Positions 19,122-38,581 of a DNA stretch of 64,000 nt are shown in pieces. Each line of letters begins with the position of its first letter. The first letter of the stretch is position 1. The stretch comes from Gammaproteobacteria bacterium (lineage in GTDB: Bacteria; Pseudomonadota; Gammaproteobacteria; Eutrophobiales; Eutrophobiaceae): NCBI GenBank assembly GCA_965221695.1, contig OZ244905.1:2560001-2624000 (forward strand), given 5' to 3'. The notes below the pieces were generated by a model. It saw only the letters and a program-made list of their open reading frames with translations, was not told where the DNA came from and made no database searches. The position numbers and the translations under genes were made by a program.

Positions 19122-19122
19122 T

Positions 19123-20539: not shown

Positions 20540-20568
20540 ACTGGACTCCCTCTTGCGCGGGAGTGGTA
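20540..20568. repeat. REP family A single arm
   Basis: ACTGGACTCCCTCTTGCGCGGGAGTGGTA. Confidence 0.7.
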
Positions 20569-20657
20569 AGGTGGCGACTTGGTTGCGCGTGGTCTCACAA
20601 GTCCAGGATGGACTTGTCCAGAACAATCTAAGATAATGCGGGTGCGGGGAATAACTT

Positions 20658-21605
20658 ATGTATTTTACAAAAAACGTAATAAGAGCATTAAGACCTTCGC
20701 TTATTATTGTCTTGCTGGCCCTGGTGGCCGGTTGTAACACGACGCCCGTAAGCCGGACATCCGGTGCGCCGGGCGCGCCAGGGTCGCCTGGATCGCCCGG
20801 GCCATCAGGCTCCCCCGGCTCAACCGGTTCTTCCGGCCCATCCATACAGGTGGAGGCGCCGGGCATGCCCGGTGTGCCTGGCGTACCGGGCGTGCCGGGG
20901 CTGCCCACAACCGGTTCGGGTGATGGTGGGGGCGCCTCCGCTCCTGTTACGGTCTCCATACCAACGCCGTCGACCGGCGCCCCGCCCGCAAGCGCCGGCA
21001 CAGGTCAGCCCACGACGCAGACCGGCGCAGCACAACAACCGGCCGGCTCTACACCCAGCGTCGGCGGCCAGGGCAAGAGCGACGATCAAATCCTGGCGGA
21101 AGCCTTGGAGGAACTCAATAAACGGCCCGGCGCGGGGCAACCGGGCGAGAGCGCTGCCGGGCAAACGCCACAGGCTGGTGGCGGCAATCCGGCAACTACC
21201 GATGCCGAGAAGAAGCAATCCCTGGGCAAGGAACTGGAACAGGGTTTTGCCGAATTCGACGAGCTGATGCTGAACGAAAAGCAGGCAAACAGGCAGCGCG
21301 CGGACCAGGAGGGCTTCGCGGACTTCCCCGAGGATGATGACCTGCTTGCCGGGAACGATCCGGCGCAAGGCGGCGCTGAAGGGCCCTTGCAGACCGCAAT
21401 GGTGGATTCCGACCCCGCATCCATCAAGGGCGATATGAATATCCCGACACGCAGCCACAGCCAGGTCCCGCCTGATCTGGCGGATGCCAAGGATGACGAT
21501 ATTATTGCGCGCCAATTGCGCGAGGCCGCGATGAAAGAACAGGATCCCGAGCTAAGGGAAAAGCTCTGGGACGAATATCGCAAGTACAAGCGAGATTTAA
21601 GATGA
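20658..21605 (+). CDS. Lipoprotein with Gly/Pro-rich linker and charged C-terminal domain
   Basis: Lipobox LVAGC, PGx repeats, C-terminal DDDIIARQLREAA...LWDEYRKYK. Confidence 0.75.
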   Translation: MYFTKNVIRALRPSLIIVLLALVAGCNTTPVSRTSGAPGAPGSPGSPGPSGSPGSTGSSGPSIQVEAPGMPGVPGVPGVPGLPTTGSGDGGGASAPVTVSIPTPSTGAPPASAGTGQPTTQTGAAQQPAGSTPSVGGQGKSDDQILAEALEELNKRPGAGQPGESAAGQTPQAGGGNPATTDAEKKQSLGKELEQGFAEFDELMLNEKQANRQRADQEGFADFPEDDDLLAGNDPAQGGAEGPLQTAMVDSDPASIKGDMNIPTRSHSQVPPDLADAKDDDIIARQLREAAMKEQDPELREKLWDEYRKYKRDLR

Positions 21606-22804
21606 AAACAAGTCATTTCAAACTGGCAGCGACCGTTGTATTGGCATGTTTCAGCCTGGTTGCATGCAACACGACCACGGTAAAGACAACCAGTTACGAG
21701 GAAGTGGCGATCGAAGCCGAGACGACGCCGGAAGAATTATTGCTGGATGTGGGGATCGGCATCTTCAACCCTGGTACTGACACGTTAAGCGTTGAGGAAG
21801 AGGGTGTGTTTCCGAAGATTCGCGAGGCAGAGGCGCGTTTCATGCCGTACAAACTGATGGAGACACTGCAGCATACCGGCAACTGGGGCGTGGTGCGGGT
21901 GATTCCGGACCGCCTCAGCGAAATGGATCTGTGGGTTGACGGGGAAATCCTGAAGTCTGACGGGGAAAACCTGTGGCTGCAAATTACCGTGGAAGACGCG
22001 ACGGGAAAACGCTGGTTCAGCAAGAAATATACAGGGGTGGCCGGGAAGTACTCGTATGACGATACGACTTCCAATGACCGCGAACCGTTCCAGAGGGTCT
22101 ACAACCAGATAGCTAACGATTTGCTGGGTTATCGCAGCCTGTATGACGCGGCTGAGATCCGGAACATGCGTACCGTTGCAGAGTTGAAGTTTGCCCGGGA
22201 TTTCTCTCCGCAGGTGTTCCACGATTACCTGGCGTTGGATGACAAGGGACGCTATGTGGTGAAACGCCTGCCCGCCGCAGATGACCCGAGCCTGCAACAG
22301 GTTCGCCAGATCCGGGAGCGGGACTACATCTTCGTCGACACGTTGCAGCAGTATTACGCCTCGTTCGTCGACCAGATGGAGGAGCCGTACCGGGAATGGC
22401 GCGAGGCATTCTACCTGGAAAGCCAGGCATTAAAGGAGGTCAGGTCGGAAGCGAACACCCGACTGGTCGGCGGCGCGCTGGCCGTGCTGGCCGGCATCCT
22501 GGCCCAGGGCGTTGACAGCCGGACGGCAAATACTGCCGGTTGGGTCGGTATCGGCGCCGGCGCGGCCGCGATCCAGAGCGGATTGCAAAAGCGTGAAGAG
22601 GCCAAGATCCATGTGGAAGCGCTGGAAGAGGTGTCCGCTTCCCTGGATTCGGAGATAGAACCCCATTCCATAGACCTGGAGGACCGCACGGTTACTCTAT
22701 CGGGTTCGGTAAATGAACAATACGGTCAATGGCGACGGATTTTGCAGGAAATTCATGCTACGGAAACCGGACAGCCATTGATTCCGGCAAATGACGGGTC
22801 CTGA
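21602..22804 (+). CDS. Uncharacterised lipoprotein
   Basis: Lipobox LVAC; ATGA overlap with the upstream stop; glycine-zipper-like segment near the C-terminus. Confidence 0.75.
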   Translation: MKTSHFKLAATVVLACFSLVACNTTTVKTTSYEEVAIEAETTPEELLLDVGIGIFNPGTDTLSVEEEGVFPKIREAEARFMPYKLMETLQHTGNWGVVRVIPDRLSEMDLWVDGEILKSDGENLWLQITVEDATGKRWFSKKYTGVAGKYSYDDTTSNDREPFQRVYNQIANDLLGYRSLYDAAEIRNMRTVAELKFARDFSPQVFHDYLALDDKGRYVVKRLPAADDPSLQQVRQIRERDYIFVDTLQQYYASFVDQMEEPYREWREAFYLESQALKEVRSEANTRLVGGALAVLAGILAQGVDSRTANTAGWVGIGAGAAAIQSGLQKREEAKIHVEALEEVSASLDSEIEPHSIDLEDRTVTLSGSVNEQYGQWRRILQEIHATETGQPLIPANDGS

Positions 22805-24341
22805 AGATCCCGGTTTTGTTCCCATCAAGCCGGCGGCGGTCGACCTGACCGCCGCCCCCGCGCAACAACAGAAAACACCGCGCTTCGGCAACCGGCCCCT
22901 GCTATGGCTGGGGGCGGGCGCGTCCTTGTGCGTCGCCGCGCTGGTTGTTTTCCTGCTGCCGCATTGGATTGACAAACCCGTTATCGAACCCGGCAGGACG
23001 GCGCCCGCGGCTGCGCCGAGCGTGTCGGAACCGGCATTACCCGTCGGGAATGCCTCACAACCGGCGCAGAGCGCGGTTGCCGCAGGCGATGCGCCCTGGC
23101 GGAAGGCGCAACAATTCTCCCAGCGCAAAGCGAGCCAGGAAATTCTGGAACAGTTGCTGGAGGTGCAACAAACCCTGGAAGAGAAGGGGGTGACGGTATG
23201 GGGCAGGAAAGAATACGAGCGCGCGCTGGAACATGCCAGAGCCGGTGATGCGGAATACAGCCGGCAGAATTTCCCCCAGGCACATGATCATTATGCCCAG
23301 GCATTGGAAATCTTCACCGGGTTGCTGCAAGGCGTGGAGGAATTATTCTCCGGCGCCATGGACTCCGGCAACGCGGCGTTGTCAGCCGGCGATGCAGCGG
23401 CGGCCACAGACGCGTTCACTATCGCGCTCGCCATCGACCCCATTGATCGGTCAGCGCTGCAAGGGATGGAACGGGCGGAGACCTTAGATGAGGTCATGGG
23501 CCTGGTTGGCAGGGGCGATGAGTTGTTGCGGGATGGCAACGCAGAGCAGGCCAAAGCCCTGTACCAGCAGGCCCTGGCGCTGGACAGCCAATCGGAGCGT
23601 GCCCGGCAACAACTGCAGTCAGCGGAAAGCGCTATCAGCGAGGGCGCCTTCAACCAGGCCATGTCTTCGGGTTTCCGTTTGCTGGAGCAAGGGCAATATG
23701 CGCAGGCGCGGGACGCGTTTTCCGACGCGCTCAAACTGAAGCCGCGTTCACGGGCCGCACGCAACGGCCTTGAGCAGACGCAACATCGAATCACCTCAGC
23801 AAAGATTAACGCAGCGTTGCAACAGGCAGAAACCGCCCAACAGAACGAGGACTGGCAGGGCGCTGTTGCCGCATACGATGTTGCTCTGAAGCTGGACCAC
23901 AGTTTGGGCAATGCCCGCGAAGCCAGGGACCGGGCAGCCCTGCGCAGTGAAATACACACGAGGCTGGAGCAGATACTGGCCCAACCGGAACGGCTGTTTG
24001 ACAACAGTGTGTATACGGAAGTTGCCGGTTTTCGTGATCGGATACAATCGCTGTCCGAACCGGGTCCCGTGCTGACAAGACAACTGGCGGAACTGAACCG
24101 CATCCTGGCCCTGGCGGATACGCCGGTAACGGTGGAGTTCAGGTCCGACAGCCAGACCCGGGTCACCCTCTACAAGGTCGGTGAACTCGGTTATTTCACT
24201 ACTAAAAGCCTGTCGCTGCGCCCGGGCCACTACGTGGCCGCCGGACGCCGTGACGGTTATCGCGATGTACGCGTTGAATTCTTTGTTGATCCTGACAAAG
24301 CCCTGCCGCCAGTGCTTGTCAGCAGCAGCGAAAAGATCTAG
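22791..24341 (+). CDS. Single-TM tetratricopeptide-repeat protein
   Basis: N-terminal TM, repeated A...Y..AL.LD/KP TPR patterns, C-terminal beta domain (LRPGHY...RDGYRDVR, PEGA-like). Confidence 0.8.
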   Translation: MTGPEDPGFVPIKPAAVDLTAAPAQQQKTPRFGNRPLLWLGAGASLCVAALVVFLLPHWIDKPVIEPGRTAPAAAPSVSEPALPVGNASQPAQSAVAAGDAPWRKAQQFSQRKASQEILEQLLEVQQTLEEKGVTVWGRKEYERALEHARAGDAEYSRQNFPQAHDHYAQALEIFTGLLQGVEELFSGAMDSGNAALSAGDAAAATDAFTIALAIDPIDRSALQGMERAETLDEVMGLVGRGDELLRDGNAEQAKALYQQALALDSQSERARQQLQSAESAISEGAFNQAMSSGFRLLEQGQYAQARDAFSDALKLKPRSRAARNGLEQTQHRITSAKINAALQQAETAQQNEDWQGAVAAYDVALKLDHSLGNAREARDRAALRSEIHTRLEQILAQPERLFDNSVYTEVAGFRDRIQSLSEPGPVLTRQLAELNRILALADTPVTVEFRSDSQTRVTLYKVGELGYFTTKSLSLRPGHYVAAGRRDGYRDVRVEFFVDPDKALPPVLVSSSEKI

Positions 24342-24477
24342 ACAACATGCTTGAACCTGCGCGCAAGCTCAAACACGAAGCTTTTGGCTTTCACCAAGCG
24401 CTGCTCGACACTACGCTGGGAGCGCGGGTGCCACCAGCTTGGGATCGCCCGATGTATCTGCCAGTCTGATTGAAGCC

Positions 24478-26550
24478 ATGTCAAAAGATCCCTCAACGAA
24501 TGAAGACAGGCCCGGCCGAATCGAGGCGGCACAGTATGTACCGCTCTCGTCAAAAAAATCCGCCCGATCCATTCGGGTTAATCCGCGGCGTTTCCTCATC
24601 GCCGCGTTGCTGACGCTCGGCGCGTTTTGCGCGTGGTTCATGTTCAGCGCCAGAGCCGTTTATATCGAAACAGAGCCCGCGAATGCCGGCATAGAGCTGT
24701 CCGGCTCACTGAAACTGAAGCTGGCGCACCGCTACCTGCTGCGCCCCGGCGCCCATGATCTTCTCGTCTCCGCCGAGGGCTTCCGGCCGTTACGGGAAAC
24801 ACTTGTCGTCAGCGCAGAGGCTGCCCAACACTACCTGTACCGGCTGGAAAAACTGCCCGGCCACCTGCTCATCGACAGCGGCGCGGTAACCGGCGCAGAG
24901 GCGCTGCTGGACGGTATTTCCAGAGGGAACACGCCGTTGCGCGTCGGCGACCTGGCGCCGGGCGAGTATCTGCTGGAGATCAGGGCCGAGCGTTATCTGC
25001 CATGGCGCGGGGAGATAATGATAGAAGGAATGGATCGTGAACAGTCGGTGAGCGCAGAGTTAAAGCCGGCCTGGGCGGAAGTCAGTATTGCGTCGGAACC
25101 GGCTGCTGCGCAGGTGTTCAGCGGGGACGAAATACTTGGCACAACGCCGCTCAGCGCGCAACTGCTGCAGGGCAGGTATGAGATCAGGATCAAGGCAGAC
25201 GGCTACAAGGTCTGGCAGGACTCGATTAACGTGGTCGCGGGCAAACCACAGTCCCTCTCCGACATCAGGCTGGAACCGGCAGACGCCACGCTGTTCCTGG
25301 TGTCCACGCCAGCCCGGGCGAATGCCACCATCAACGGCAACTTCATGGGCCTGACGCCGCTGGAAGTCGCAATCACGCCCGGAGAAGCCACCCGAATTCG
25401 ACTGTTCAAACAGGGTTACAACCCGGCCACGAACTCCGTGACCGCGCAGTCGGGCGAGCAGAAAAGACTATCTGTAACCCTGGAACCGGAACTGGTGGCG
25501 GTGGCAGTCAGGGTCGATCCTGCTGATGCGCAATTATTCGTCGACGGCGCGCCGGTTGGAGAGGGCAGCCGTACTTTGCAGTTGCCCACTCGCAAACACC
25601 GGATCGAGGTGCGCAAGCAGGGTTACGTCGATTACAAGACTGAGCTGACACCCCATTTCGGAGTCGAGCATGAATTGGTCGTGCGCTTGAAGTCGGTCAA
25701 ACAGGCAAAGCTGGAGGCTCTCAAACCAGTCATTACGGCGCCGGCCGGTCAAACCCTGAAGCTGTTGTACCCGGACGCCGTTACCATGGGCGCGTCGCGC
25801 CGGGAACCAGGGCGCGGGGCCAATGAAATCCTGCGCAACGTCAAGCTCACGCGGCCGTTTTACCTGGCGCTGAAAGAGGTGACAAATCAGGAATACCGGT
25901 TGTTCGACAAGGGTTTTACGTCCGGGGCCGAGCGCGGCAACAGCCTGAATGGGGACAAACAGCCGGCGGTAAAACTCACCTGGGAGCAGGCGGCAAACTA
26001 TTGCAACTGGTTGAGCAAAGAAGCCTCCCTGACCCCGTTCTACGTTGAACAGGACGGCAAAATTACCGGTTTTGATAACACCGCAAACGGCTACCGCCTG
26101 CCGACCGAGGCGGAATGGGCCTGGGCCGCGCGTACCACGAGCACAGGGCAAACGCTAAAGTTCCCTTGGGGCGCAGAGATGCCTCCCACAAAAAACAGTG
26201 GCAATTACGCCGACCGTAAAGCCGCATCCTTGTTCAGCAGGGTCATCGTCAACTACGATGACGGTTATGTCGTCAGCGCGCCGGTAGGCAGTTTTCCGCC
26301 CAACGGCAAAGGCCTGTTCGACCTGGGCGGCAACGTCGCGGAATGGGTCAACGATTTCTACGGCGTCGAAGTCAGCGCCGGCGGCAAAGTTGAACTCGAC
26401 CCCATGGGACCGGCAAGCGGCGAGTTCCGAGTCATCCGCGGCTCAAGCTGGGCACACGGCGCCATTACCCAACTACGCCTGTCATTCCGCGACTACGACA
26501 ACAAGGCCCGAAACGACGTAGGCTTCAGGATTGCCCGTTTTGCGGATTGA
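24478..26550 (+). CDS. Single-TM multi-PEGA protein with C-terminal FGE-sulfatase (SUMF1-fold) domain
   Basis: Several S.P..A.V..G...G.TPL PEGA repeats; EVTN, RLPTEAEW, GLFDLGGNVAEW, RGSSW, GFR motifs. Confidence 0.88.
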   Translation: MSKDPSTNEDRPGRIEAAQYVPLSSKKSARSIRVNPRRFLIAALLTLGAFCAWFMFSARAVYIETEPANAGIELSGSLKLKLAHRYLLRPGAHDLLVSAEGFRPLRETLVVSAEAAQHYLYRLEKLPGHLLIDSGAVTGAEALLDGISRGNTPLRVGDLAPGEYLLEIRAERYLPWRGEIMIEGMDREQSVSAELKPAWAEVSIASEPAAAQVFSGDEILGTTPLSAQLLQGRYEIRIKADGYKVWQDSINVVAGKPQSLSDIRLEPADATLFLVSTPARANATINGNFMGLTPLEVAITPGEATRIRLFKQGYNPATNSVTAQSGEQKRLSVTLEPELVAVAVRVDPADAQLFVDGAPVGEGSRTLQLPTRKHRIEVRKQGYVDYKTELTPHFGVEHELVVRLKSVKQAKLEALKPVITAPAGQTLKLLYPDAVTMGASRREPGRGANEILRNVKLTRPFYLALKEVTNQEYRLFDKGFTSGAERGNSLNGDKQPAVKLTWEQAANYCNWLSKEASLTPFYVEQDGKITGFDNTANGYRLPTEAEWAWAARTTSTGQTLKFPWGAEMPPTKNSGNYADRKAASLFSRVIVNYDDGYVVSAPVGSFPPNGKGLFDLGGNVAEWVNDFYGVEVSAGGKVELDPMGPASGEFRVIRGSSWAHGAITQLRLSFRDYDNKARNDVGFRIARFAD

Positions 26551-26687
26551 ACGGGATAAGCATCAATTGTGTGTCGGTTTCTTTTCGTTATAGGGTGAAC
26601 CTGGCTGTTGGCCTGCGACCGGAAGGCGTTTCAGACTTTAATATCCATCCGGATACCTTCGTCTTTGATTATTTCAGGAACCGGGGC

Positions 26688-27875
26688 TCATGGTTCCTGC
26701 TTGGCAATTCTTTTAATATAGTTCATTAATGTGGGAATGCCCGGGTAGTACAGTCCTTGATCCAGCGGGTTTGACTGCCAGATGTAACCTTCATTTATTA
26801 GTTTGTCTCTTGCTGTGTCAGGGGTCAGGTTCTCTGGCAATCTCTTGTCTATGGCATTAAATAGTGTTGTTAGATTATTTTCTGTTATGGTGTGATTGTT
26901 CTCAAAGTGATTGGCCAGTTGAATGGCTGGAAGAAGTAATTTTTCTTTTCTTATTTTGCTGTATCGATCGGCATAAAATGACTGTCTTTGAGTTTCTATT
27001 TCATTAAGCGATTGAGTGGCAATCTCTTTGTCTATATGTGTATGCTTTCGTGCTTGAAGCGTTTTGAACAGAGCTTCTCCCCAAAGCTGGGTAAAATAAG
27101 GATACCCCTGGCTGTCCTTGATTATGTTTCTCATGGTTTCGTCGTCGAATGTAATAGCATATTTTTTTAACGGATCGAGGATCGCTTTGAGAGAATCTTC
27201 CGCAGAAAGTAGTCCAGGGTAGATCTTGTAGTTTCTTTCCCAGAATGTTGAAGATAGTGTGCCGAGATGCTCCCGCAGACCGGGTGTTCCAGCCATGACG
27301 AGTAAGAACGGCGCTCTTTTTTTGGTTTTTTGACTGGCGTTCAGCAATGCTTGACCAACTGGTCGTTCAAGGTTATGAGCCTCGTCAAGTATCAGCAATG
27401 TCGGTTTCTTTAAACAGCGTTGTGTCAACGCAGTTGCAACGGTGGTGAATGCAACCTGCTGCTCCGGGTTGAGTTTTGCGCCTATGCTGGCTTCTGCGGG
27501 TATGCCAACAGGGACAGCAGAGGCGCTGGCCCTGATATTCCCTTCTAATCTGCTGAGCAGGTTTCTCTTATGACTGGCTGGCGCGAGGGCGTTTACAAGT
27601 TCCAGGGTTGTATTAATATCATCAGGCGTAAGGTCAATGATATCGATCTCTTCGGCTGCTTGTCTTGAAGTTTCTTTTTCTAGCCATGTGAGCAATGCTG
27701 TTTTCCCATTGCCGCGGGGTGCGCAAAGGAGAGTATCTTTGGATGGACTGCTTTGTTGTTTCAGTTCATTGATCAATGTGTGGAAATGGTGTTGTTCTGT
27801 CTGCCGTCCGGGGAAGGACGGGGGGACTTGTCCGATTCCTGGCCTGAAGGGATTAATGGTGTTTTCAGGGATCAT
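26688..27875 (-). CDS. AAA-family (AAA_16/STAND-like) ATPase
   Basis: NPFRPG, GRQTE, Walker A APRGNGKT, Walker B LILDEAH, GYPYF.QL; AT-rich DNA. Confidence 0.8.
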   Translation of the reverse strand: MIPENTINPFRPGIGQVPPSFPGRQTEQHHFHTLINELKQQSSPSKDTLLCAPRGNGKTALLTWLEKETSRQAAEEIDIIDLTPDDINTTLELVNALAPASHKRNLLSRLEGNIRASASAVPVGIPAEASIGAKLNPEQQVAFTTVATALTQRCLKKPTLLILDEAHNLERPVGQALLNASQKTKKRAPFLLVMAGTPGLREHLGTLSSTFWERNYKIYPGLLSAEDSLKAILDPLKKYAITFDDETMRNIIKDSQGYPYFTQLWGEALFKTLQARKHTHIDKEIATQSLNEIETQRQSFYADRYSKIRKEKLLLPAIQLANHFENNHTITENNLTTLFNAIDKRLPENLTPDTARDKLINEGYIWQSNPLDQGLYYPGIPTLMNYIKRIAKQEP

Positions 27876-27923
27876 GGTTTTGATGTCTGATCAATATTAG
27901 AATACGATGTATGGCAGTTTCGG

Positions 27924-28229
27924 TTACACCACCTCGGCATGGCCATGCAGCGCACGCAACGCATGCTCCGGGTCTGCGTACAGAATCCTCAGCAACGCTC
28001 GGGCTGGACCGGCTGGCTTTCTGCGACCCTGCTCCCAGTTTTCCAAGGTACGCTTGCTGACACCAAGCAGTGCAGCAAAATGCTTCTGACTCAGACCGGT
28101 CTTCTCGCGAATCTGCCTTACCTCCGGTTCGGAAAACCGGGTGACCCTGCCAGGTGGCAACTCGCCCCCGACTATCCGGTCCATCTCGTGCATGCTTTCC
28201 AGCAATTCATTGAACAGTTCTTTTTTCAT
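27924..28229 (-). CDS. XRE-family HTH protein (NadS/HigA-type antitoxin)
   Basis: ELFNELLESM N-terminus, IREKTGLSQKHFAALLGVSKRTLENWEQGRRKP.GPARALL. Confidence 0.85.
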   Translation of the reverse strand: MKKELFNELLESMHEMDRIVGGELPPGRVTRFSEPEVRQIREKTGLSQKHFAALLGVSKRTLENWEQGRRKPAGPARALLRILYADPEHALRALHGHAEVV

Positions 28230-28240
28230 CTGACCACCCC

Positions 28241-28269
28241 CTTATACGCCTATGGCGTACCAAAGTCAA
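28241..28269 (-). promoter_or_regulatory. Sigma70-like promoter with overlapping palindromic operator
   Basis: Minus strand TTGACT-N17-TATAAG; palindrome TACGCC-TAT-GGCGTA at 28245-28259 overlaps the spacer and -10. Confidence 0.65.
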
Positions 28270-28270
28270 A

Positions 28271-28408
28271 TATTTTCTGTGTAGATTTTACTGACTAACC
28301 TGCGCCCCGTACCATTCCCGCGCAAGCGGGAATCCAGTAGACAAAGGGTCGCCCTGCGGGCGACACAGTATTACACTGGACTCCCGCTTTCGCGGGAGTG
28401 GTACGGAG
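28271..28408. repeat. REP family A full element (dRS3-like arms)
   Basis: Leader, ACCATTCCC-N8-GGGAATCCAGT, central GTCGCCC/GGGCGAC hairpin, inverted arm ACTGGACTCCCGCTTTCGCGGGAGTGGT. Confidence 0.85.
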
Positions 28409-28580
28409 GAATGCCTTGGCCATGGAGTCGAATCCTGGCTGACATGACCTGACTTTCACGGAAGAGTTTGGCGCGCGTCCAACTATTCTTTCAGCCATGC
28501 TATGGATATATGTAATGAGTGCATTCTGATTGGCTGTATAATTCGCAAATCTTTTCTGAATGCAGCCTTGGAGAATAACA

Positions 28581-29300: not shown

Positions 29301-29315
29301 AAAGGTTACCTCCCT

Positions 29316-29338
29316 GTGGGCGAGACACCCGCGCCCCC
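29316..29338. repeat. REP family B arm
   Basis: GTGGGCGAGACACCCGCGCCCCC, related to 37038-37092. Confidence 0.6.
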
Positions 29339-29431
29339 AAGGGCGGCTTAGCGCTATATCTTTTCCGACACAGCGCTTACAAGTTAAGGAAACTCAGCAG
29401 CTTTTTCCTCTTTGTCGATACGGAATAGAAT

Positions 29432-30130
29432 ATGGATCACGAACGCAAACAACATCTGCTGCGATTTTATAATCTGATCGATCAGCTCGAACAAAACATT
29501 GGCGGCGCTTGTAAGTTGTCTGAATGCACAGGTCGCATGAATTGGCCACAACGAGGTGTTTACTTCTTCAGAGAAGCAGGCGAGAACCGGGATCATACAA
29601 GCTCGGGGCGTCGTATAGTAAGGGTCGGCACACATGCCCTGAAGACAGGTTCTCGCTCCACGCTCTGGACACGGTTATCGCAGCATAAAGGACAGGCGCA
29701 AAGCGGCGGTGGCAACCATCGTGGTTCGATCTTCCGACTGATAGTCGGCACAGCCCTGATTAGACGAGACAGTCTCGATTACCCGACCTGGGGCCAAGGC
29801 AGCACCGCCAAATCCGAGATAAGACAGCAGGAGATATTACTGGAACAAGCTGTCAGTAGAGTCGTTGGAGCAATGCCGTTTCTGTGGCTGGACATTAACG
29901 ATGAACCTGGCCCTGACAGTCTCCGCGGGAATATAGAGCGCAATGCGATTGCGTTATTGAGCAATTACGGCAAAATGTCTCTTGACCCACCATCGCCCAC
30001 GTGGCTTGGTCAGTTCTGCAATCGTCCATTGGTAAGAGAGTCGGGGCTATGGAACCAGAACCATGTTGCTGAACGATACGACCCGGCTTTTCTCGATTCG
30101 TTGGAAGAACTGGTACACGACATGAAGTAA
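29432..30130 (+). CDS. Divergent GIY-YIG-like nuclease (putative)
   Basis: GVYFF...IVRVG...LWTRLSQH...IERNAI fits the GIY...YIG...R..QH...E layout. Confidence 0.55.
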   Translation: MDHERKQHLLRFYNLIDQLEQNIGGACKLSECTGRMNWPQRGVYFFREAGENRDHTSSGRRIVRVGTHALKTGSRSTLWTRLSQHKGQAQSGGGNHRGSIFRLIVGTALIRRDSLDYPTWGQGSTAKSEIRQQEILLEQAVSRVVGAMPFLWLDINDEPGPDSLRGNIERNAIALLSNYGKMSLDPPSPTWLGQFCNRPLVRESGLWNQNHVAERYDPAFLDSLEELVHDMK

Positions 30131-30135
30131 ACATT

Positions 30136-30786
30136 ATGATAATCATTATTCAATGCGCAGCATCCAAACAACAAAATGCCGGCTATTTGCGCCGACAAGA
30201 AGGCCAAAAAGTTCTATTCGTTGCCGACCCGCGCAAAGCGCCGACCAATGAGCGCTACATACATGCTCATCCGGATGATATTTCAGATACTGGTAATTCA
30301 TGGCGGAAGGAACTGCTGAACTATAACGATGCTCCGGGTAACAACCCGTTCGGATTACTGCCCGCATGGAAACTTTATAAGAACCGAACTTATGGGCTCC
30401 TTGCAGAGCATTACGGATTGGAAAAACTCTATATTCTGTCGGCAGGATGGGGGTTAATTCCGGCGAACTTTTTGACACCTTGCTACGATATCACTTTCAG
30501 TAACCAGGCTGACACCTATAAACGCAGGAGAAAGCGGGATGACTACCGGGACCTGCAGATGCTGCCAACAGATACCAGGGAGGAAATAGTATGCTTTGTG
30601 AGCCAAGGCTATATCCCGCTGCTGAATGAACTGACAAAGAACATCAATGCGCCCAAACGCCTGTTTTACCGTAGCGAAAAAATCCCGTACGCGCCAGGTT
30701 TTAAATTATATGAGCATACCACCACAACACGGACCAACTGGCATTACGAGTGCGCCCGGAAGTTTATGAGCGAGACGACTGCATAA
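30136..30786 (+). CDS. YaaA/DUF328/DUF6884-like protein
   Basis: IIIIQCAASK, PAWKLY, YILSAGWGLI, YDITF motifs. Confidence 0.6.
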   Translation: MIIIIQCAASKQQNAGYLRRQEGQKVLFVADPRKAPTNERYIHAHPDDISDTGNSWRKELLNYNDAPGNNPFGLLPAWKLYKNRTYGLLAEHYGLEKLYILSAGWGLIPANFLTPCYDITFSNQADTYKRRRKRDDYRDLQMLPTDTREEIVCFVSQGYIPLLNELTKNINAPKRLFYRSEKIPYAPGFKLYEHTTTTRTNWHYECARKFMSETTA

Positions 30787-30842
30787 GCCGGGTAAACTTT
30801 TCAAAGATACTATGTTGATTGGTACGCTTGAGTACATTATTT

Positions 30843-30878
30843 GACTGGACTCCCGCTTTCGCGGGAGTGGTACGGAGG
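30843..30878. repeat. REP family A single arm
   Basis: ACTGGACTCCCGCTTTCGCGGGAGTGGTACGGAGG, identical to the right arm of the element ending at 28408. Confidence 0.85.
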
Positions 30879-31067
30879 CATGAACAAGCTTGGGTTAACA
30901 GTTACGCCGGGTGCTGATCATGAGGGTTGAGCTTCCCGATACATAATATGGATGAGTGTTCAGTAGGAAACCGGGATTGCCTTACCGACATTCTCAGCAT
31001 ATGATTGAATGATTATGCTTATCAGCAGTCAAATCAAAGAACATCTTTAGAAAAACCATCCGGTTCA

Positions 31068-31280
31068 ATGTATAGAACAATCCTATTACTCGCGCTAGCC
31101 AGTTTCACGGCTATGGCGCAGCAGGCGGCGGATGTTTCCGAAGCTGAGGCTGCGCAAGCCCAAGAGGGAACAGGGGAGCCGCAGGCTGAGCAGGAAATCG
31201 TCGATGCTGCGCCGGATATCTTCGACCCGACTGAGGAGGTTTCCGAGGATTATCCCGTGGATTTTCCTGTAGACATATAA
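31068..31280 (+). CDS. Small acidic exported protein
   Basis: Signal peptide from ATG 31068, then an acidic tail ending FDPTEEVSEDYPVDFPVDI. Confidence 0.65.
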   Translation: MYRTILLLALASFTAMAQQAADVSEAEAAQAQEGTGEPQAEQEIVDAAPDIFDPTEEVSEDYPVDFPVDI

Positions 31281-31297
31281 CCCGGATCAGCCCTGTT

Positions 31298-32095
31298 ATG
31301 AAATTTAATCGGACAACAGACTTTTTCTACCAGTTATTTACGCTGATCGCTGCGATCATCATCGTTCATGCGGTATATGTTGCGGTGATCCGGCCGAACG
31401 CGGAAGCCCTGTTGGAGGAGCAACGCATACAGCAGGAGGCGGGCGCCAGCTATGAGGTCAAGCGTTCCGTCTATATTGTGATCAAGGACTTTGAACAGGA
31501 GGCCTGTTTTATCCTGGCATTGTGGGTCGTGGCCATCATCGGCCTGAAGGCCCGGTTTGCGCTCTCCGAAAGACGGCTGCTGAGCCGGTCCCTGCTGGAA
31601 GTGGCGCCCGGCGCGACTATCCTGCCCGAGGATACCCGGCAATACATCAGGCCGTTACAGGCGCTGCCGGAAAACGAACGGGAATACCTGTTGCCGCGGG
31701 CGTTGCAGGCGGCCCTGCAACGGTTCGGGTCCACCGCGGATATACAAGATGTGTCCTCGGCCATCAGAGAGATATGCGAGACCGAATCCGACCGGCTGGA
31801 TTCCGAGTTGTCGATGATCAGGTACATCATCTGGGCGATACCTTCCATCGGCTTCATCGGCACCGTGCGCGGCATCGGCGAAGCCCTGGGGCAGGCCCAC
31901 CGCGCAGTGGAAGGCGATATTGTGGGCGTAACCGTGAGCTTGGGAGTGGCCTTCAACTCCACGTTCATCGCACTGATTATCAGCATCTTCATCATGTTCC
32001 TGATGCACCAGTTACAGTTGCTACAGGAACGGCTGGTACTGGACTCCCAGAATTATTGCGACGTCAACCTGTTGCGCCACTTGCAAGTCCGGTAA
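31298..32095 (+). CDS. MotA/TolQ/ExbB-family proton channel
   Basis: WAIPSIGFIGTVRGI...LGVAFNSTFIAL, the ExbB/TolQ TM-hairpin signature. Confidence 0.88.
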   Translation: MKFNRTTDFFYQLFTLIAAIIIVHAVYVAVIRPNAEALLEEQRIQQEAGASYEVKRSVYIVIKDFEQEACFILALWVVAIIGLKARFALSERRLLSRSLLEVAPGATILPEDTRQYIRPLQALPENEREYLLPRALQAALQRFGSTADIQDVSSAIREICETESDRLDSELSMIRYIIWAIPSIGFIGTVRGIGEALGQAHRAVEGDIVGVTVSLGVAFNSTFIALIISIFIMFLMHQLQLLQERLVLDSQNYCDVNLLRHLQVR

Positions 32096-32116
32096 AAGCA
32101 AACGGCAGAAGTTTGA

Positions 32117-33463
32117 ATGAACATCGCAGTCATAGAACTGAACGACTCGGAGGTCACCCTGGTCCAGTCCGGACAGATCGTGGCGCGCAGCCCCGGCATT
32201 GCCGTGATCAAGGAGGACCGCATTGAGCTGGGGCAGGCGGCGCTGCAATCCACGCATATTGACCCCAGGAATACCTTCAGCCGGTTCTGGAGCAACCTGA
32301 ACCAGGACAACCTCAAGCACAAGACGAAACTCGCCAGGCATAATGCCGACCTGGCCTTTGCGCACTTGTCTGCTTTGCATGACATGGCGGGCGAGGTGGA
32401 GGAGGCGCTTCTTGCCGTGCCCGGTAGCTTCACCAGCGCGCAGCTCTCGTTGCTGCTGGGCCTGGCGCAAGCCTCTCCGTTTTCGGTGACCGGCCTGGTG
32501 GACGCCGCAGTGGCGGCAACCGCGGCGACGGCCGGGCCAGGCAGTTACAACCACCTGGACATCCAACTGCACCAGACCGTGGTCACCTCCCTGGAGGTTT
32601 CAGGCACCGCGAAGCGCGTCGCAGTGAAAGTGATTGACGATGTCGGGCTGCTGGAGATTCAGGATAAGTGCTTGAATCACATCGCTGACCTGTTCATCCG
32701 CCAATCCCGGTTCGACCCGCTGCATCATGCGGCAACAGAACAAGCCCTTTGCAACAGTCTGACACAATGCCTGGAAGAACTCCGGACCGAGGCAGACTCC
32801 CTGGTCGATATCGGGTTCGAGAACGCACGTTACCAGGCTCGGGTGAGTCGGGAACGCCTGGTAGAAACTTTGGAACCATTGTATAACCGGATCAGCGCCG
32901 GCGCCGACAGCGCCCGAGTTTGTCTGGTAAACAAGCGTCTGGCCGGGCTTCCGATGTTTACCGAACACCTGGCCGCAAGCGGTAACGAGGTTCGCATCCT
33001 GGACGAGCGCGCGGTCTTTGCCGGTTGCATGGATTATGCGTCGGAGCGCAAAACCGGGGATGACGGAATTTATTTCGTTACCGAACTCAAGACCATTGGC
33101 GAACCACCGGCAATCAGCGGCACAGCAACCGCGTTGGCGCAAGAACCTGAAGCCGGTCCGACCCATCTCCTGGTGGATGCAGAGGCCCACCCGCTTGGAC
33201 AGGCCCCGTTATACCTGTCCGCGCAAGGCGCATTATCCGCATCCGGCGGGCAGGAATTCCTCTGTTCGCTGACCCTGAACGGTGCGGCGGCAACCCTGGT
33301 CCCGGCGGACGCCGGCACAGAGATTTATGTCAACGGTCATACCGTGCGCGGTCATGTCAGTCTCAGCTTGGGTGATAACATCAGTTTTGCCAACTCGGAT
33401 CGCGCATTTACCCTGATCAGGACGCTGGCGGCAGGACAGGAACCCCTCTCCGGAGACAGATGA
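32117..33463 (+). CDS. Degenerate Hsp70/actin-like fold protein with C-terminal FHA-like domain
   Basis: AVIELND, LAVPGSFTSAQ, LVDAAVAA, HLDIQ parallel the DnaK NBD motifs; C-terminal IYVNG...LSLGDNISF. Confidence 0.6.
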   Translation: MNIAVIELNDSEVTLVQSGQIVARSPGIAVIKEDRIELGQAALQSTHIDPRNTFSRFWSNLNQDNLKHKTKLARHNADLAFAHLSALHDMAGEVEEALLAVPGSFTSAQLSLLLGLAQASPFSVTGLVDAAVAATAATAGPGSYNHLDIQLHQTVVTSLEVSGTAKRVAVKVIDDVGLLEIQDKCLNHIADLFIRQSRFDPLHHAATEQALCNSLTQCLEELRTEADSLVDIGFENARYQARVSRERLVETLEPLYNRISAGADSARVCLVNKRLAGLPMFTEHLAASGNEVRILDERAVFAGCMDYASERKTGDDGIYFVTELKTIGEPPAISGTATALAQEPEAGPTHLLVDAEAHPLGQAPLYLSAQGALSASGGQEFLCSLTLNGAAATLVPADAGTEIYVNGHTVRGHVSLSLGDNISFANSDRAFTLIRTLAAGQEPLSGDR

Positions 33464-34545
33464 GGAACAAGAGACTGCTGACCCCTTTCAGCCTGTCGTT
33501 CCTTGACATCATGTCATGCGGCTTCGGCTCGGTGGTGCTGCTGTTCCTTATCATCAAGCATAACGTCGATACCCATACCATTATTCCTGTTGACACCCGG
33601 GACCAGACTGCTGAGGTGATGCTGCTGGAGGAGGAGATACTGGAAGGCAAACAAAACCTTGCCAAGGCCCGCAATACCATCTCGGAAATTGACGAGCAAC
33701 TGGCGCTTGCGCAAGGCATGGCCCGGCGCATCATGGAGAAGATCCGGGAAACACGCTCGCTCGCGGACCAGTTGACCGATACCACCAGCACTGTGGAACT
33801 GGACCGCTTGAAGCTGAATATCAAGGAGTTGGAGGAACAGAGACAACAGTTGCAAGAGGAGGTCAAGGACACGGGAGGCAATGTCCGGCGCCTGGTGGGC
33901 GATGGCAACCGCGAGTACCTGACCGGTCTGAAACTGGGAGGGAAACGCATATTGATTCTGCTGGATGTCTCCGGCAGTATGCTGGACGATACCATCGTCA
34001 ACATCATCCGCTTTCGCAATATGCGCGATGGGCTCAAGCGCAACGCGCCCAAATGGGTGCAGACCTTGCGCATGGTGGAATGGCTCGTTGCCGGGTTCCC
34101 CAGAGACAGCCAATACCAGATCTATGTGTTCAACACGGAAACCCGCTCGCTATTGCCGGGCTTGACCGGGAAGTGGCTGGACATAAGCAACAAGCCGGAA
34201 CTGGATTCGGCGATGGGTGAGCTCGGCAAGATCGTGCCGGAGGGTGGCACCAACCTGGAAAACGCGTTTGCCGCGATTGGCAAGTTGCGACCGCGGCCAG
34301 ACAACGTCTACCTGATCACGGATGGCCTGCCGACGCTGGGTTCGAGGAACCTGCGCGGCGTCACCATTACCGGCAAGCAACGCCTGAACCTGTTCACCAG
34401 GGCGATAAAGCAGATGCCCGGCAATGTGCCCGTTAACGTTATCCTGGCGCCGCTGGAAGGCGACCCGGAAGCGGCTTTTGCCTACTGGCGCCTGGCTTTG
34501 AACACGGGCGGCTCGTTTCTCATCCCGAGCGAGGACTGGCCATGA
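33460..34545 (+). CDS. Membrane-anchored coiled-coil + vWA protein 1
   Basis: TM SFLDIMSCGFGSVVLLFLII, coiled coil, MIDAS LDVSGSM, GGTNL, LITDG. Confidence 0.85.
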   Translation: MRNKRLLTPFSLSFLDIMSCGFGSVVLLFLIIKHNVDTHTIIPVDTRDQTAEVMLLEEEILEGKQNLAKARNTISEIDEQLALAQGMARRIMEKIRETRSLADQLTDTTSTVELDRLKLNIKELEEQRQQLQEEVKDTGGNVRRLVGDGNREYLTGLKLGGKRILILLDVSGSMLDDTIVNIIRFRNMRDGLKRNAPKWVQTLRMVEWLVAGFPRDSQYQIYVFNTETRSLLPGLTGKWLDISNKPELDSAMGELGKIVPEGGTNLENAFAAIGKLRPRPDNVYLITDGLPTLGSRNLRGVTITGKQRLNLFTRAIKQMPGNVPVNVILAPLEGDPEAAFAYWRLALNTGGSFLIPSEDWP

Positions 34546-35546
34546 GGAAAAAACGGCGGGAAAACGAGGCGTTCAGCATCTCGTTTCTGGACGTCATCAC
34601 TTGCGGATTTGGCGCCATCATACTGTTGCTGATGATCGCCAAGACCGGAGACAGCCCCATCCTGGAGAGCGCGCTGGAATCCATGCAGGGTATTGTTCGG
34701 GAATTGCAGGTGCAGTTATTTGAAATCCGCGGCGAGGCCAAAATCCTCAATCGTGAACTGGACGCCAAACATGAGCAGCGTTCGGAATGGGATCTGCGGG
34801 TCGCGCGCCTGCAAGCGGAACTGGCACAGGAAGAACTGCGTTATAACAGTGTGCGAGATGACGCCGCGGTCGGCGTCATCATTAAAGGAGAGCTAGAGCT
34901 GGCACTGCAGCAGCTCACGGATGAGATGAAACGCCTGCTGTCACAAGAAGACCGCGTTCGGACGGGCCTGGTTGGCGGCATACCGGTAGACAGCGAGTAT
35001 GTTATTTTCATCATCGATACCTCGGGCAGCATGGTGAACTACCATTGGGAGAACATGATCAACCAGTTGATTACCACTCTTGATGTATACCCCCGCTTGA
35101 AGGGGATACAGATTATGAGCGACATGGGCGATTTTCTGTTTTCCCAGTACCGGAACAAGTGGATTCCCGATACCAAAGGCAGGCGACAGGTGATCATCCG
35201 AACCTTGCGTTCCTGGCGCGCATTCAGCAACAGCAGCCCGGTGGAAGGTATCACCCGGGCTATCCGCGCCTTTTATGATCCCGCAAAGAAGATCAGCATC
35301 TACGTATACGGCGATGAGTTTACCGGCCCATCAATCCGGGAGGTTCTCAATACGGTTGCGCGCATCAACCCGAAGGACAAGGGCGGCAATCCGCGGGTGC
35401 GCATCCATGCGGTCGGCTTTCCTGTTCCATCCAGCGCATCTGAACATTTCCTTTTGACCAACAAGCGTTATGCGTCGCTGATGCGCCAACTGACCCACGA
35501 AAACGGCGGCGCTTACGTCGGCCTGAATGACCCAGGAGCGCGATAA
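34542..35546 (+). CDS. Membrane-anchored coiled-coil + vWA protein 2
   Basis: TM SFLDVITCGFGAIILLLMI, coiled coil, IDTSGSM, YGDEF, RIHAVGF. Confidence 0.85.
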   Translation: MRKKRRENEAFSISFLDVITCGFGAIILLLMIAKTGDSPILESALESMQGIVRELQVQLFEIRGEAKILNRELDAKHEQRSEWDLRVARLQAELAQEELRYNSVRDDAAVGVIIKGELELALQQLTDEMKRLLSQEDRVRTGLVGGIPVDSEYVIFIIDTSGSMVNYHWENMINQLITTLDVYPRLKGIQIMSDMGDFLFSQYRNKWIPDTKGRRQVIIRTLRSWRAFSNSSPVEGITRAIRAFYDPAKKISIYVYGDEFTGPSIREVLNTVARINPKDKGGNPRVRIHAVGFPVPSSASEHFLLTNKRYASLMRQLTHENGGAYVGLNDPGAR

Positions 35547-35547
35547 T

Positions 35548-36186
35548 ATGAACTTAAGACCTTTTTACATTGCCGGCATAGTGTTAATTCTCAGCGCCTG
35601 TGAGCAATCCGTTTCGCTCAAGGTAGACAGCGAGATACCCACCCCGGTCATCGCCAGGATGCCGGTAACCATCGGCGTTTACCTCGGGGATGAATTGCGT
35701 AACTTCGCATACGAGGAAAATTCCGAAGACCGGCCCAACTGGAAGATCGATAGCGGCTCCTCTCATGTGGCCTTGTTCGAACAAATCCTCGGCTCCATGT
35801 TCGTGCAGACACTGGAAGTAACGAGTACTGAGGCCAGCGCAGGCGTCGACGCAGTCCTGGCGCCCAGCGTCTCGGAAATGCAGTTTGCGCTCCCCGCGGA
35901 AACCAGCTCGGAATTTTATGAAGCCTGGATAAAATACGATATAGCGCTCTACAACGCCGATGGCAGCGCCATTGCAAACTGGTCGGTCACCGGTTACGGC
36001 AAATCGTCCACCGAGTTCATGAAGAGCCGCGACAAGGGGCTGAACGCCGCAGTCAACCAGGCCCTGCGGGATGCCGGCGCGAAATTTGCGCTGGGCTTTC
36101 AAAAGGTAGAAGCAGTCAACACCTGGCTTGAAGGTTTGACACCTGCAGATGACTTGGGTGGTTTATCCACAGATGGCGCAGAATAG
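35548..36186 (+). CDS. Uncharacterised lipoprotein
   Basis: Lipobox LSAC; starts 2 bp after the upstream stop. Confidence 0.75.
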   Translation: MNLRPFYIAGIVLILSACEQSVSLKVDSEIPTPVIARMPVTIGVYLGDELRNFAYEENSEDRPNWKIDSGSSHVALFEQILGSMFVQTLEVTSTEASAGVDAVLAPSVSEMQFALPAETSSEFYEAWIKYDIALYNADGSAIANWSVTGYGKSSTEFMKSRDKGLNAAVNQALRDAGAKFALGFQKVEAVNTWLEGLTPADDLGGLSTDGAE

Positions 36187-36190
36187 CGCA

Positions 36191-36277
36191 GACTAACCCG
36201 AGCGCCCCCATCCCATACCCGTAAACGGGAATCCAGTAAAACAACAGGTCGCTCTGCGAGCGACACAATATTAGACT
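36191..36277. repeat. REP family A partial element
   Basis: CCCGTAAACGGGAATCCAGT plus GTCGCTC/GAGCGAC hairpin. Confidence 0.7.
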
Positions 36278-36320
36278 ATAATTTAAAGTTGTAACAAACA
36301 TCTATGTGCATTGCGCAAGT

Positions 36321-36989
36321 ATGAAAATCCTGTCGAATATCATCGTACTGGTTGGTTTGGTCCTGTTGGCCGGGTGTAAGAGCACCACTGTGATCGACGA
36401 GTATCGGGAAACTTCTGTTGCAAAGATAGTCGGTGGCGAGTCCATTGTGATACTGGGCCGGCGCCACAGCTCCGGCTATGAGACCGAGGACGACTTCATA
36501 AACTGTGTCGGCAAGTCGGTGACACAGGGGCAGTCCGAGATCAACGTGATCCCGGAAAAGGATTTTATCGACAGCATGTACCCGTACTTCGAGACCAGTA
36601 CCGCACCGATGGACGTGAGGAACCTGGGTAAGCTGGCGCAGATCCCGGTCATTGCCGACAAGTTCAACGATTTTAACCTGCGTTATTTTGTCTGGATTGA
36701 CGGCGCTACCGAAAGAACGGATTCCTCCGGTTCCGTGTCCTGTGCCGTGGGACCGGGCGGCGGCGGGTGTTTCGGTTTTGCCTATTGGAAAGACGAGGCG
36801 AACTATGAGGCCAGCATCTGGGATTTCAAACAACTGGCCCTGTCCGGCAAGATCAATGCCGAGACCAAAGGCACCTCGTTCATGCCGGCGATAATCATCC
36901 CCATCCCGATGCTGGCCCGGGTCCAGGAAAATGCCTGCAAGTCCCTGGCCAACCAGATCAAAACCTTCTTCACTGAACAGCCAGGCTGA
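36321..36989 (+). CDS. Uncharacterised lipoprotein
   Basis: Lipobox LAGC; internal CAVGPGGGGC. Confidence 0.75.
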   Translation: MKILSNIIVLVGLVLLAGCKSTTVIDEYRETSVAKIVGGESIVILGRRHSSGYETEDDFINCVGKSVTQGQSEINVIPEKDFIDSMYPYFETSTAPMDVRNLGKLAQIPVIADKFNDFNLRYFVWIDGATERTDSSGSVSCAVGPGGGGCFGFAYWKDEANYEASIWDFKQLALSGKINAETKGTSFMPAIIIPIPMLARVQENACKSLANQIKTFFTEQPG

Positions 36990-37037
36990 CCCTCAGCCGC
37001 AGGGCAACCGCACATTTTGTGTTTTACCGCTTTCTCC

Positions 37038-37092
37038 GGGAGCGCGGGCGTCTCGCCCGCCAGTCAGACGCGAGCAAGACACCCGCGCTCCC
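37038..37092. repeat. REP family B doublet between convergent genes
   Basis: GGGAGCGCGGGCGTCTCGCCCGC...GCGAGCAAGACACCCGCGCTCCC inverted pair. Confidence 0.75.
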
Positions 37093-37169
37093 AGGAAATT
37101 AGTGACCGATTTATCGCGCCTTAACGGCGCAGCGGGTGTCAGGATTCAAAGGATGCGGTTGCCCGGCCC

Positions 37170-38417: not shown

Positions 38418-38422
38418 ATTAA

Positions 38423-38573: not shown

Positions 38574-38581
38574 TTAAATTA

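Follow-up and report, generated by a model that had tools for sequence, protein, structure and literature searches.

We report here an operon of eleven genes, g1 to g11, that probably encodes an ion-driven motor of 5:2 stoichiometry. It occupies positions 20658-36989 of a 64,000-nucleotide stretch of DNA from a gammaproteobacterium of the family Eutrophobiaceae (assembly GCA_965221695.1, contig OZ244905.1, positions 2,560,001 to 2,624,000 of the forward strand); this whole stretch is called the window, and all positions given below refer to it. In the reading that we favour, and judge to be probable, the channel is formed by g6, the Asp-bearing partner inside it is a heterodimer of the paralogues g8 and g9, and the von Willebrand factor A (vWA) heads of these two proteins engage the products of g1 to g4. 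The 5:2 assembly, the rotation, the binding partner of the vWA heads and the cellular role we infer from the evidence laid out below.

All eleven open reading frames (ORFs) are present on the + strand, as the initial annotation had listed them, and several overlap by 4-20 bases. They are as follows, together with the segment that separates g4 from g5; the division into core and accessory genes is justified further on.

20658-21605, + strand: g1, lipoprotein, core gene
21602-22804, + strand: g2, lipoprotein, core gene
22791-24341, + strand: g3, bitopic inner-membrane tetratricopeptide repeat (TPR) protein, core gene
24439-26550, + strand: g4, bitopic inner-membrane PEGA-FGE protein (FGE, formylglycine-generating enzyme), core gene
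26551-31067, no strand: insertion outside the machine, low in GC and variable across relatives
31068-31280, + strand: g5, small secreted acidic protein of about 70 residues, accessory gene
31298-32095, + strand: g6, MotA/ExbB/TolQ-type channel subunit of 265 residues, core gene
32117-33463, + strand: g7, cytoplasmic Hsp70/actin-fold protein of 448 residues, accessory gene
33460-34545, + strand: g8 (vWA1), presumed pore partner of 361 residues, core gene
34542-35546, + strand: g9 (vWA2), paralogue of g8, 334 residues, core gene
35527-36186, + strand: g10, lipoprotein of no known family (Pfam, NCBIfam), accessory gene
36306-36989, + strand: g11, lipoprotein of no known family (Pfam, NCBIfam), accessory gene

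The longest ORF of g5 runs from 31005, while orthologues back the ATG at 31068, and the true start of g11 is probably the ATG five codons into its ORF. Lipoboxes are found in g1 (VAGC, Cys26), g2 (LVAC, Cys22), g10 (LSAC, Cys25) and g11 (LAGC, Cys24). There is a single hydrophobic anchor in each of g3, g4, g8 and g9, and none in g7. It is from these lipoboxes and single anchors that the parts are placed in the periplasm or at the outer membrane. A Pfam scan covered 20 proteins of the locus region, and beyond chance matches under the threshold it assigned no family to g1, g2, g5, g7, g9, g10 or g11.

The channel subunit is the most readily recognised of the proteins. g6 matches MotA_ExbB (PF01618) with an E-value of 2.6e-15 and 56.7 bits, against a cut-off of 22.9, and also the tolQ family of NCBIfam, under its cut-off (E 1.5e-5). 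A search of the sequences of solved structures with g6 returned only TolQ, at E 0.68. In alignment with a solved TolQ (8odt), T189 (in GTV) and T222 (in NST) of g6 fall on the Thr residues of the TolQ motifs GTV and ATA. Both residues, and P182 as well, are found in all 78 g6 orthologues. We take the aligned TolQ residues to be T145 and T178 of the pore ring.

What the channel gene does not have is a conventional partner. The initial annotation had seen no ExbD, TolR or MotB beside it, and indeed none of the 20 scanned proteins matches an ExbD, MotB or OmpA-type family of Pfam. The search can be extended to the whole genome, which holds eight MotA_ExbB matches. All five of its ExbD matches adjoin four other MotA_ExbB loci, and MotB_plug has no match at all. 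With each ExbD gene paired elsewhere and MotB_plug lacking, no spare ExbD-type partner is left for g6. The genome also has a canonical Tol cluster at another place, in which TolB adjoins an ExbB/ExbD-type pair.

The candidates for the vacant position are g8 and g9, the first of which begins 1.4 kb downstream of g6. Each starts with a basic tail and a membrane helix that carries an Asp (residues 14-32 with D16, SFLDIMSCGFG, in g8; residues 15-33 with D17, SFLDVITCGFG, in g9), continues into a coiled coil (about 50-145 in g8) and ends in a vWA head, which in g9 is divergent. The metal-ion-dependent adhesion site (MIDAS) of such domains is defined by the motif DxSxS...T...D. It is complete in g8 (D169, S171, S173, T264 and D288), and the DxSxS part is present in both proteins, so that the paralogues with basic tail, Asp helix, coiled coil and metal site are found as the initial annotation had described them. 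Neither protein matches ExbD (PF02472) at E<=0.01, the helix being followed by the coiled coil and the vWA head, and no His or SHLS-type motif can be read in either helix.

That g9 is a paralogue of g8 follows from a profile comparison with hhalign (99.7%, E 1.8e-25, with 20% identity in the aligned columns). The alignment spans the first 240 residues of g8 and 214 of g9, and it takes in the helix, the coiled coil and the DxSxS motif. According to a precomputed list, PF13519 or PF13768 is assigned to many of the close homologues of g8. Compared by sequence with solved structures, g9 gave only coiled-coil noise and the I-domain of integrin alpha-M, the latter at E 0.3.

For the conservation of these features, hidden Markov models (HMMs) of the eleven proteins were run against 80 loci from named public genomes, retained from a total of 582. 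The Asp of the membrane helix, on whose conservation the initial annotation had made its reading depend, is present as D16 in 79 of the 80 loci and as D17 in 78. Among the 150 database representatives listed, an N-terminal helix can be recognised in 121, and 119 of these have the Asp; the other 29 were set aside, as they have no such N-terminus and their starts are apparently truncated or miscalled. The metal site is similarly constant. D169, S171, S173 and D288 of g8 occur in every locus, position 264 being Thr in 70 and Ser in 10, and in g9 the DxSxS residues (D159, S161, S163) are found in 79 loci and D258 in 78.

We have also modelled the g8/g9 pair, using the helix and coiled-coil parts (residues 1-155 of g8 and 1-145 of g9). 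The model has an ipSAE of 0.52, compared to 0.00 for the best of three controls. Of 157 solved complexes, 116 reach the mark applied to this score, as do 2 of 215 mismatched pairs; at 0.60 or under stand only 18 of those 157, together with both of the passing mismatches. The runs share at least 78% of the contacts, and the partner has a predicted local distance difference test (pLDDT) value of at least 76. The model thus weakly favours a heterodimer held together by helix and coiled coil. The heterodimeric partner proposed in the initial annotation gains some ground from this.

We now turn to the composition of the operon. In the initial annotation the genes stood in two blocks. The coordinates of these are right, but the gap at 26551-31067 is an insertion, and elsewhere the genes form one operon. 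In this genome the operon is divided by 4.4 kb of defence-like genes of low GC: the GC content is 0.496-0.497 at 26001-30000, compared to 0.577-0.605 at 20001-26000, and taken by block it is 0.58-0.61 before the insertion, about 0.50 within it and 0.56-0.58 after it. Both blocks are found, with identical gene order, in all 14 relative loci (20 kb each). The gap between them is below 700 bp in eight of these, about 0.8 kb in L031, and 2.5-3.7 kb, filled with other cargo, in five.

The survey of 80 loci gives the same picture over a wider range, and the contiguity of the blocks, which had been put forward as a check on the reading, is thereby upheld. Upstream DNA of 9.4 kb or more is available for 61 of the loci, and in 56 of these it contains the four genes g1-g4. 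As for the five exceptions, an insertion pushes g1 off the edge in L038, no g1-g4 are found nearby in L058 and L095, g2 goes undetected in L090, and both g1 and g2 in L103. The distance from g4 to the next gene does not exceed 640 bp in 58 loci out of 59. vWA2 is adjacent to vWA1 in all 80, and the channel gene is linked in 78, the two loci without it (L035, L070) having little DNA upstream of vWA1. g7 is likewise present in 78 of the 80 loci, g10 and g11 occur together in 51 of the 74 that have at least 2 kb downstream, and g5 is detected in many loci, not in all.

In all 13 of the more distant loci the order g1-g4, channel, vWA1, vWA2 is preserved. Seven of them, as well as G036 and a Kordiimonas contig (L112), have a seven-gene form from which g5, g7, g10 and g11 are missing. 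These counts define a core of seven genes (g1-g4, g6, g8 and g9) and four accessory ones. Some variations on this arrangement can be mentioned. One genome, G215, has both the 11-gene and the 7-gene form, on different contigs (L123, L124). In L105, L108, L109 and L111 the channel gene comes after vWA2 instead of before g7, the remaining order being kept. In the small genomes (1.7-2.0 Mb) of L115, L116 and L117, g7 is short, about 300 residues, with weak matches (E 1e-14 to 2e-18), and it possibly has no C-terminal beta domain there.

Consider now the four proteins that are linked to the motor genes in this way. In g1, a variable low-complexity tether rich in Gly, Pro and Ser is followed by a near-invariant acidic C-terminal motif (P271, D280, D281, ARQLREAA, DPELREKLWDEYRKYK), and in an alignment of 29 orthologues only the last 45 or so residues are conserved. 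The motif is shared by 292 proteins, and the search with it led only to g1-like hypothetical proteins, in no other context; among the 120 of them that were listed none has a Pfam family, and the few that are named are called hypothetical protein.

For g2, which matches no family of Pfam or NCBIfam, a predicted model is informative. Its mean pLDDT is 78.0, with values under 50 at residues 290-322. The N-terminal domain (about 45-185) has the fold shared by PelC, FlgT, DUF330, CsgG, the N-terminal domain of TolB (TolB-N) and LptE, and the rest is a long helical hairpin (229-350) with a Gly-rich tip. The VIA Z scores, for which the typical background is 7-8, are 10.7 for the FlgT ring (root-mean-square deviation (rmsd) 4.8 over 173 aligned residues), 10.2 for DUF330, 9.9 for PelC (rmsd 2.3 over 108 aligned residues) and 9.4 for TolB, while Foldseek gives an E-value of 1.4e-4. 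According to this model the domain is of the fold of ring-forming outer-membrane lipoproteins.

The other two core partners have inner-membrane anchors. g3 has a hydrophobic segment at 37-55, a periplasmic TPR region, matched by TPR_2 (E 1.3e-16) as well as by further models of the repeat, and a beta domain at its C-terminus. g4 has its hydrophobic segment at 52-70, followed by five PEGA stretches (E 3.6e-45) and an FGE-sulfatase domain at residues 448-700 (E 8.1e-38). A catalytic formylglycine-generating enzyme has an active-site Cys pair in its C-terminal part. There is no such pair in the domain of g4, the sole Cys residues of the protein being C64, in the membrane anchor, and C522, with none in the last 180 residues. 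Its best match in NCBIfam is GldK/PorK (TIGR03525), at E 4.4e-31.

Among the accessory proteins, g5 has an N-terminus resembling a signal peptide and a conserved acidic C-terminus. The model of g7 (pLDDT 89.4) shows a nucleotide-binding domain of the Hsp70/actin type over residues 1-320 or so and a C-terminal beta domain at about 350-435. Foldseek matches it to DnaK/Hsp70 at E 1e-18, and matches to the domain only have template modelling (TM) scores of 0.58-0.60 with an rmsd of about 4; none of the 36 members of the g7 family has an Hsp70 match in Pfam. By reading, g7 appears to be devoid of the Gly-rich phosphate loops of such ATPases, the stretches IELNDSE and HLDIQLHQT standing at what we presume to be their places. 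A lead, and only that, is that the C-terminal beta domain might be FHA-like. An FHA match is found by Pfam in 2 of the 36 family members (best E 0.0044), and the Atlas neighbours of a g7 homologue include clusters that are 94% FHA (score 0.96), but hhalign of the g7 C-terminus against one FHA protein of the same genome gave a probability of 0.4%.

On the basis of these results, the following mechanism can be proposed. g6 would assemble into a pentameric ion channel of the TolQ/ExbB/MotA type. g8 and g9 would replace ExbD, TolR or MotB, each contributing one membrane helix, oriented N-in, with its Asp (D16 or D17). Both helices would sit inside the g6 pentamer, level with the Thr ring of T189 and T222, and the flow of protons (or of another ion) via Asp and Thr would turn the pentamer with respect to the dimer. 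On a coiled-coil stalk some 90 residues long, the two vWA heads would reach into the periplasm, where their metal sites could grip an acidic ligand belonging to one of the four always-linked partners g1-g4. Candidate ligands are the acidic C-terminal motif on the tether of g1, the ring-type lipoprotein g2 of the outer membrane, and the FGE head, non-catalytic, that g4 carries on its PEGA stalk, with the TPR protein g3 serving as a scaffold. In this way the ion-motive force would be turned into mechanical work at the peptidoglycan or outer membrane, alongside the canonical Tol-Pal system, and g5, g7, g10 and g11 would be accessory parts, missing in some lineages.

It is fair to state that several observations weigh against this proposal. 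In g8, VWA_2 is matched at E 1.3e-5 and 26.2 bits, just below the cut-off of 27; g9 has no Pfam match whatsoever, and the equivalent of the MIDAS Thr was not identified in it. The g8/g9 pairing passes its test weakly, and models of this kind readily join coiled coils. Furthermore, the vWA proteins have no peptidoglycan-binding domain, so that either the channel or its partner may be the part that turns, and the operon encodes neither an outer-membrane barrel nor a secretin, so an output at the cell surface would be without an obvious route. Finally, the 4.4-kb insertion may uncouple the two halves of the operon transcriptionally in this genome. A promoter-like site at 30977-31005 is at chance level (9 sites found, 9.2 expected), as is the terminator scan (21 against 18.0), and these counts are therefore uninformative as to an internal promoter.

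Other explanations of the same genes have to be considered as well. The vWA proteins might not be pore partners at all, but periplasmic scaffolds or adhesins, or else binders of the motor rim in the manner of TonB and TolA, the channel then working alone or with a distant ExbD or TolR. The weakness of the heterodimer result lends this some weight, and so does a different vWA family for which binding to the motor edge, like that of TolA or TonB, has been predicted (PMC12204202). However, the near-invariant Asp sits where ExbD, TolR and MotB carry theirs, no His or SHLS-type motif accompanies it in either helix, each ExbD of the genome has its own adjacent ExbB, and the vWA pair is always adjacent to the channel gene. 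We regard this explanation as unlikely.

It might also be asked whether the locus could be a defence system against phages, i.e. an envelope sensor motor like MotAB coupled to effectors, as in Zorya. Zorya uses a motor of the MotA/ExbB type, and this common motor, together with the defence-like cargo within the operon (PDC-M57B, E 1.1e-86) and the other cargo found there in relatives, is what speaks for the idea. Yet none of the eleven proteins matches a PADLOC model, save for weak coiled-coil noise at E ~1e-3, and Pfam and NCBIfam reveal no nuclease, helicase or other effector domain. In 21 of the 22 genomes of the genus the operon stays at one and the same position on the chromosome, its GC content of 0.56-0.61 is above the ~0.50 of the cargo, and the defence genes are later insertions that differ between genomes. 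A defence function of this kind is accordingly very improbable. Hardly more can be said for a vWA/TPR membrane complex of the BatA/BatB/BatC type without motor function, in which the MotA/ExbB protein would be a mere channel or anchor. Two membrane-anchored vWA proteins and a TPR protein do recall the Bat operon, and g3 has a weak match to the BatC TPR family of NCBIfam (E 1.1e-4), but its 21.7 bits are far below the cut-off of 175, Pfam finds no MoxR ATPase or DUF58 partner in the locus, and the invariant membrane Asp and the Thr ring would be left without a role. The ion-driven motor with g8 and g9 as Asp-bearing partner is thus the reading retained in what follows.

A motor family of this kind has already been predicted. 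'Origin and Evolution of Bacterial Periplasmic Force Transducers' (Mol Biol Evol 2025;42:msaf138; PMC12204202) defines computationally a family with a trans-pore helix (TPH) and a vWA domain, TPH-vWA, with a tolQ-like motor. There, membrane-tethered vWA homologues are described as co-occurring tightly with tolQ homologues in the absence of tolR or exbD, mostly in heterologous pairs and mainly in Proteobacteria. Their trans-pore helix has a conserved Asp and no SHLS/His motif, and in an AlphaFold 3 model of 5:2 composition the Asp pair lies inside the Thr ring of the channel. The locus in the window has a linked tolQ-like gene, no tolR, exbD or motB, paired vWA genes, an Asp helix lacking SHLS/His, and the Thr ring, all of which are features of that family as described in the paper. 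By its sequence features the locus would then be a new member of the predicted family. The assignment rests on the shared features; the paper's example is from Idiomarina loihiensis, and the 80 loci include no record of that genus.

The initial annotation had called the machine uncharacterised. At the bench this stands, while the idea itself was already in print (PMC12204202), and the present locus consequently adds detail and not a new kind. What is added is the fixed partner list (the 7-gene core and the 11-gene form), the candidate vWA ligands and a set of cultured hosts. This fixed partner set appears to be undescribed in searchable text. The words PEGA, FGE and sulfatase are absent from the text of PMC12204202 and one supplement, section 8 of the paper makes no mention of an Hsp70-fold protein or of linked lipoproteins, and literature searches on the combination of motor, vWA and PEGA yielded no relevant paper beyond this one.

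The proposed machine can be placed next to the better-known systems. With ExbB-ExbD, TolQ-TolR and MotA-MotB it has in common a MotA_ExbB domain with both pore Thr residues and a partner that crosses the membrane once, N-in, by a helix whose Asp, of the essential type, lies close to the cytoplasmic end. The partner here, on the other hand, consists of two paralogues, each with a coiled coil and a vWA head, and it is without an ExbD domain, a MotB plug or a peptidoglycan-binding domain like that of OmpA. Moreover, no transducer gene like TonB or TolA is found in the operon.

In the GldL-GldM motor with its GldK/GldN ring, which serves type 9 secretion and gliding, the dimeric partner spans the periplasm, and there are a non-catalytic part of FGE fold and TPR and lipoprotein partners. 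The likeness extends to g4, whose FGE domain matches GldK/PorK best among the NCBIfam families, but with 108.6 bits against a cut-off of 350, and with an N-terminal membrane helix in place of a lipobox. Genes of the GldM/PorM, GldN or SprA type were not seen, GldK being the one model of this apparatus that was tested, and the host is a gammaproteobacterium and not a member of the Bacteroidota.

The resemblance to Tol-Pal consists of the TolQ-like channel, a helical element spanning the periplasm, a TPR protein, outer-membrane lipoproteins and the TolB-N-like fold in g2. However, the genome has a Tol-Pal cluster of its own, and the operon has no TolA, TolB propeller or OmpA domain of Pal. Myxococcus Agl-Glt likewise joins a motor of the TolQR type to TPR proteins, to lipoproteins and to CglB, an adhesin with a vWA domain. 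The vWA protein there is an outer-membrane lipoprotein adhesin and not an Asp-bearing motor partner, and no Glt homologues were identified at the present locus.

With regard to the role in the cell, envelope maintenance or tethering is our tentative suggestion. A function other than those named here is possible, surface adhesion or gliding seems unlikely, and secretion decidedly so. 5:2 motors driven by ions power flagella, TonB-dependent uptake, Tol-Pal and gliding. If the reading is true, the Asp-bearing partner of such motors can be exchanged for an output module of quite another kind, in which vWA heads are borne on a coiled coil. A bolder version, which we consider doubtful, is that, next to Ton, Tol-Pal and GldLM, the operon represents one more class of 5:2 machine that spans the periplasm. 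In such a machine a heterodimeric coiled-coil axle would carry metal-dependent vWA "hands" that reversibly grip the acidic end of g1 and reel it in against the g2 ring and the g4 stalk, with g7, possibly bearing an FHA domain, acting as a clutch on the cytoplasmic face of the channel. The accessory set and this grip-and-pull mode are described in no searchable text that was found.

The distribution of the system is broad. Of 22 other genomes of the genus, 21 carry vWA1; outside the genus it turns up in one further genus of the family and, within the class, in a single genome from a different family. Its profile retrieves 2293 representatives (50% clustering) at E<=1e-3, a number that falls to 1069 with E<=1e-10 and to 408 with E<=1e-30. 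In a sample of 400 genomes spread evenly over the class, 36 are positive at E<=1e-20 (30 of 321 genera), one of them, G063, being flagged as unpublished. Cultured carriers among the loci are Microbulbifer taiwanensis, Maricurvus nonylphenolicus, Marinibactrum halimedae and Seongchinamella spp.

We finally describe the insertion between g4 and g5, within which the following features were found.

26688-27875, - strand: AAA ATPase (AAA_22, Pfam)
28365-28413 and 30834-30882: 49-nt direct repeat resembling repetitive extragenic palindromic (REP) elements, copies 92% identical, with a GC hairpin
28560-29300: ORF of 246 residues
29432-30130: PDC-M57B, candidate defence protein (E 1.1e-86)
30136-30786: DUF6884/PDC-M57A/DpdC-like gene

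The two copies of the repeat flank the PDC-M57 module of three genes. With at most 3 mismatches allowed, the genome contains 55 copies of the 34-nt core of the repeat (31 forward, 24 reverse; 0 for the reversed control), from which we conclude that it is an interspersed element of the REP type. An attachment (att) site, considered as another explanation of the flanking copies, was rejected in view of this genome-wide occurrence; perhaps the repeat serves as a recombination site for the cargo. There is no tRNA at 19000-39000. In the nearest relative, L034, which has 97-100% protein identity over the eleven genes, the insertion holds only the ATPase and, of the 246-residue ORF, the initial 73 residues.

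The five relatives with cargo at the exact g4/g5 junction all belong to the genus of the window. Within the genus this junction is a hotspot of variable cargo (L024:7926-11615, L025:8523-11431, L027:8809-11516, L033:9818-13385, L021:10786-11411). The genes carried there include nucleotidyltransferase/PDC-S09, DUF2939/PDC-S55, BrnT, PIN/VapB, and fragments of a type II methyltransferase and restriction enzyme, and the GC content of the inserts is 0.44-0.50, compared to 0.56-0.57 for their loci. L033 has a second insertion within the operon (L033:7390-8795), of about 1.4 kb, between the channel gene and g7 and with a BrnA antitoxin-like ORF.

Two more orphan MotA/ExbB genes occur elsewhere in the genome. 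One of them, of 257 residues and without ExbD (L019, G000:C1:2738976-2742299), has an FHA protein upstream, and a 245-residue FHA-containing protein and a PP2C phosphatase downstream. The other, of 248 residues (L020, G000:C1:3364656-3367937), is followed by a 197-residue protein of no known family and stands next to a YkuD L,D-transpeptidase.

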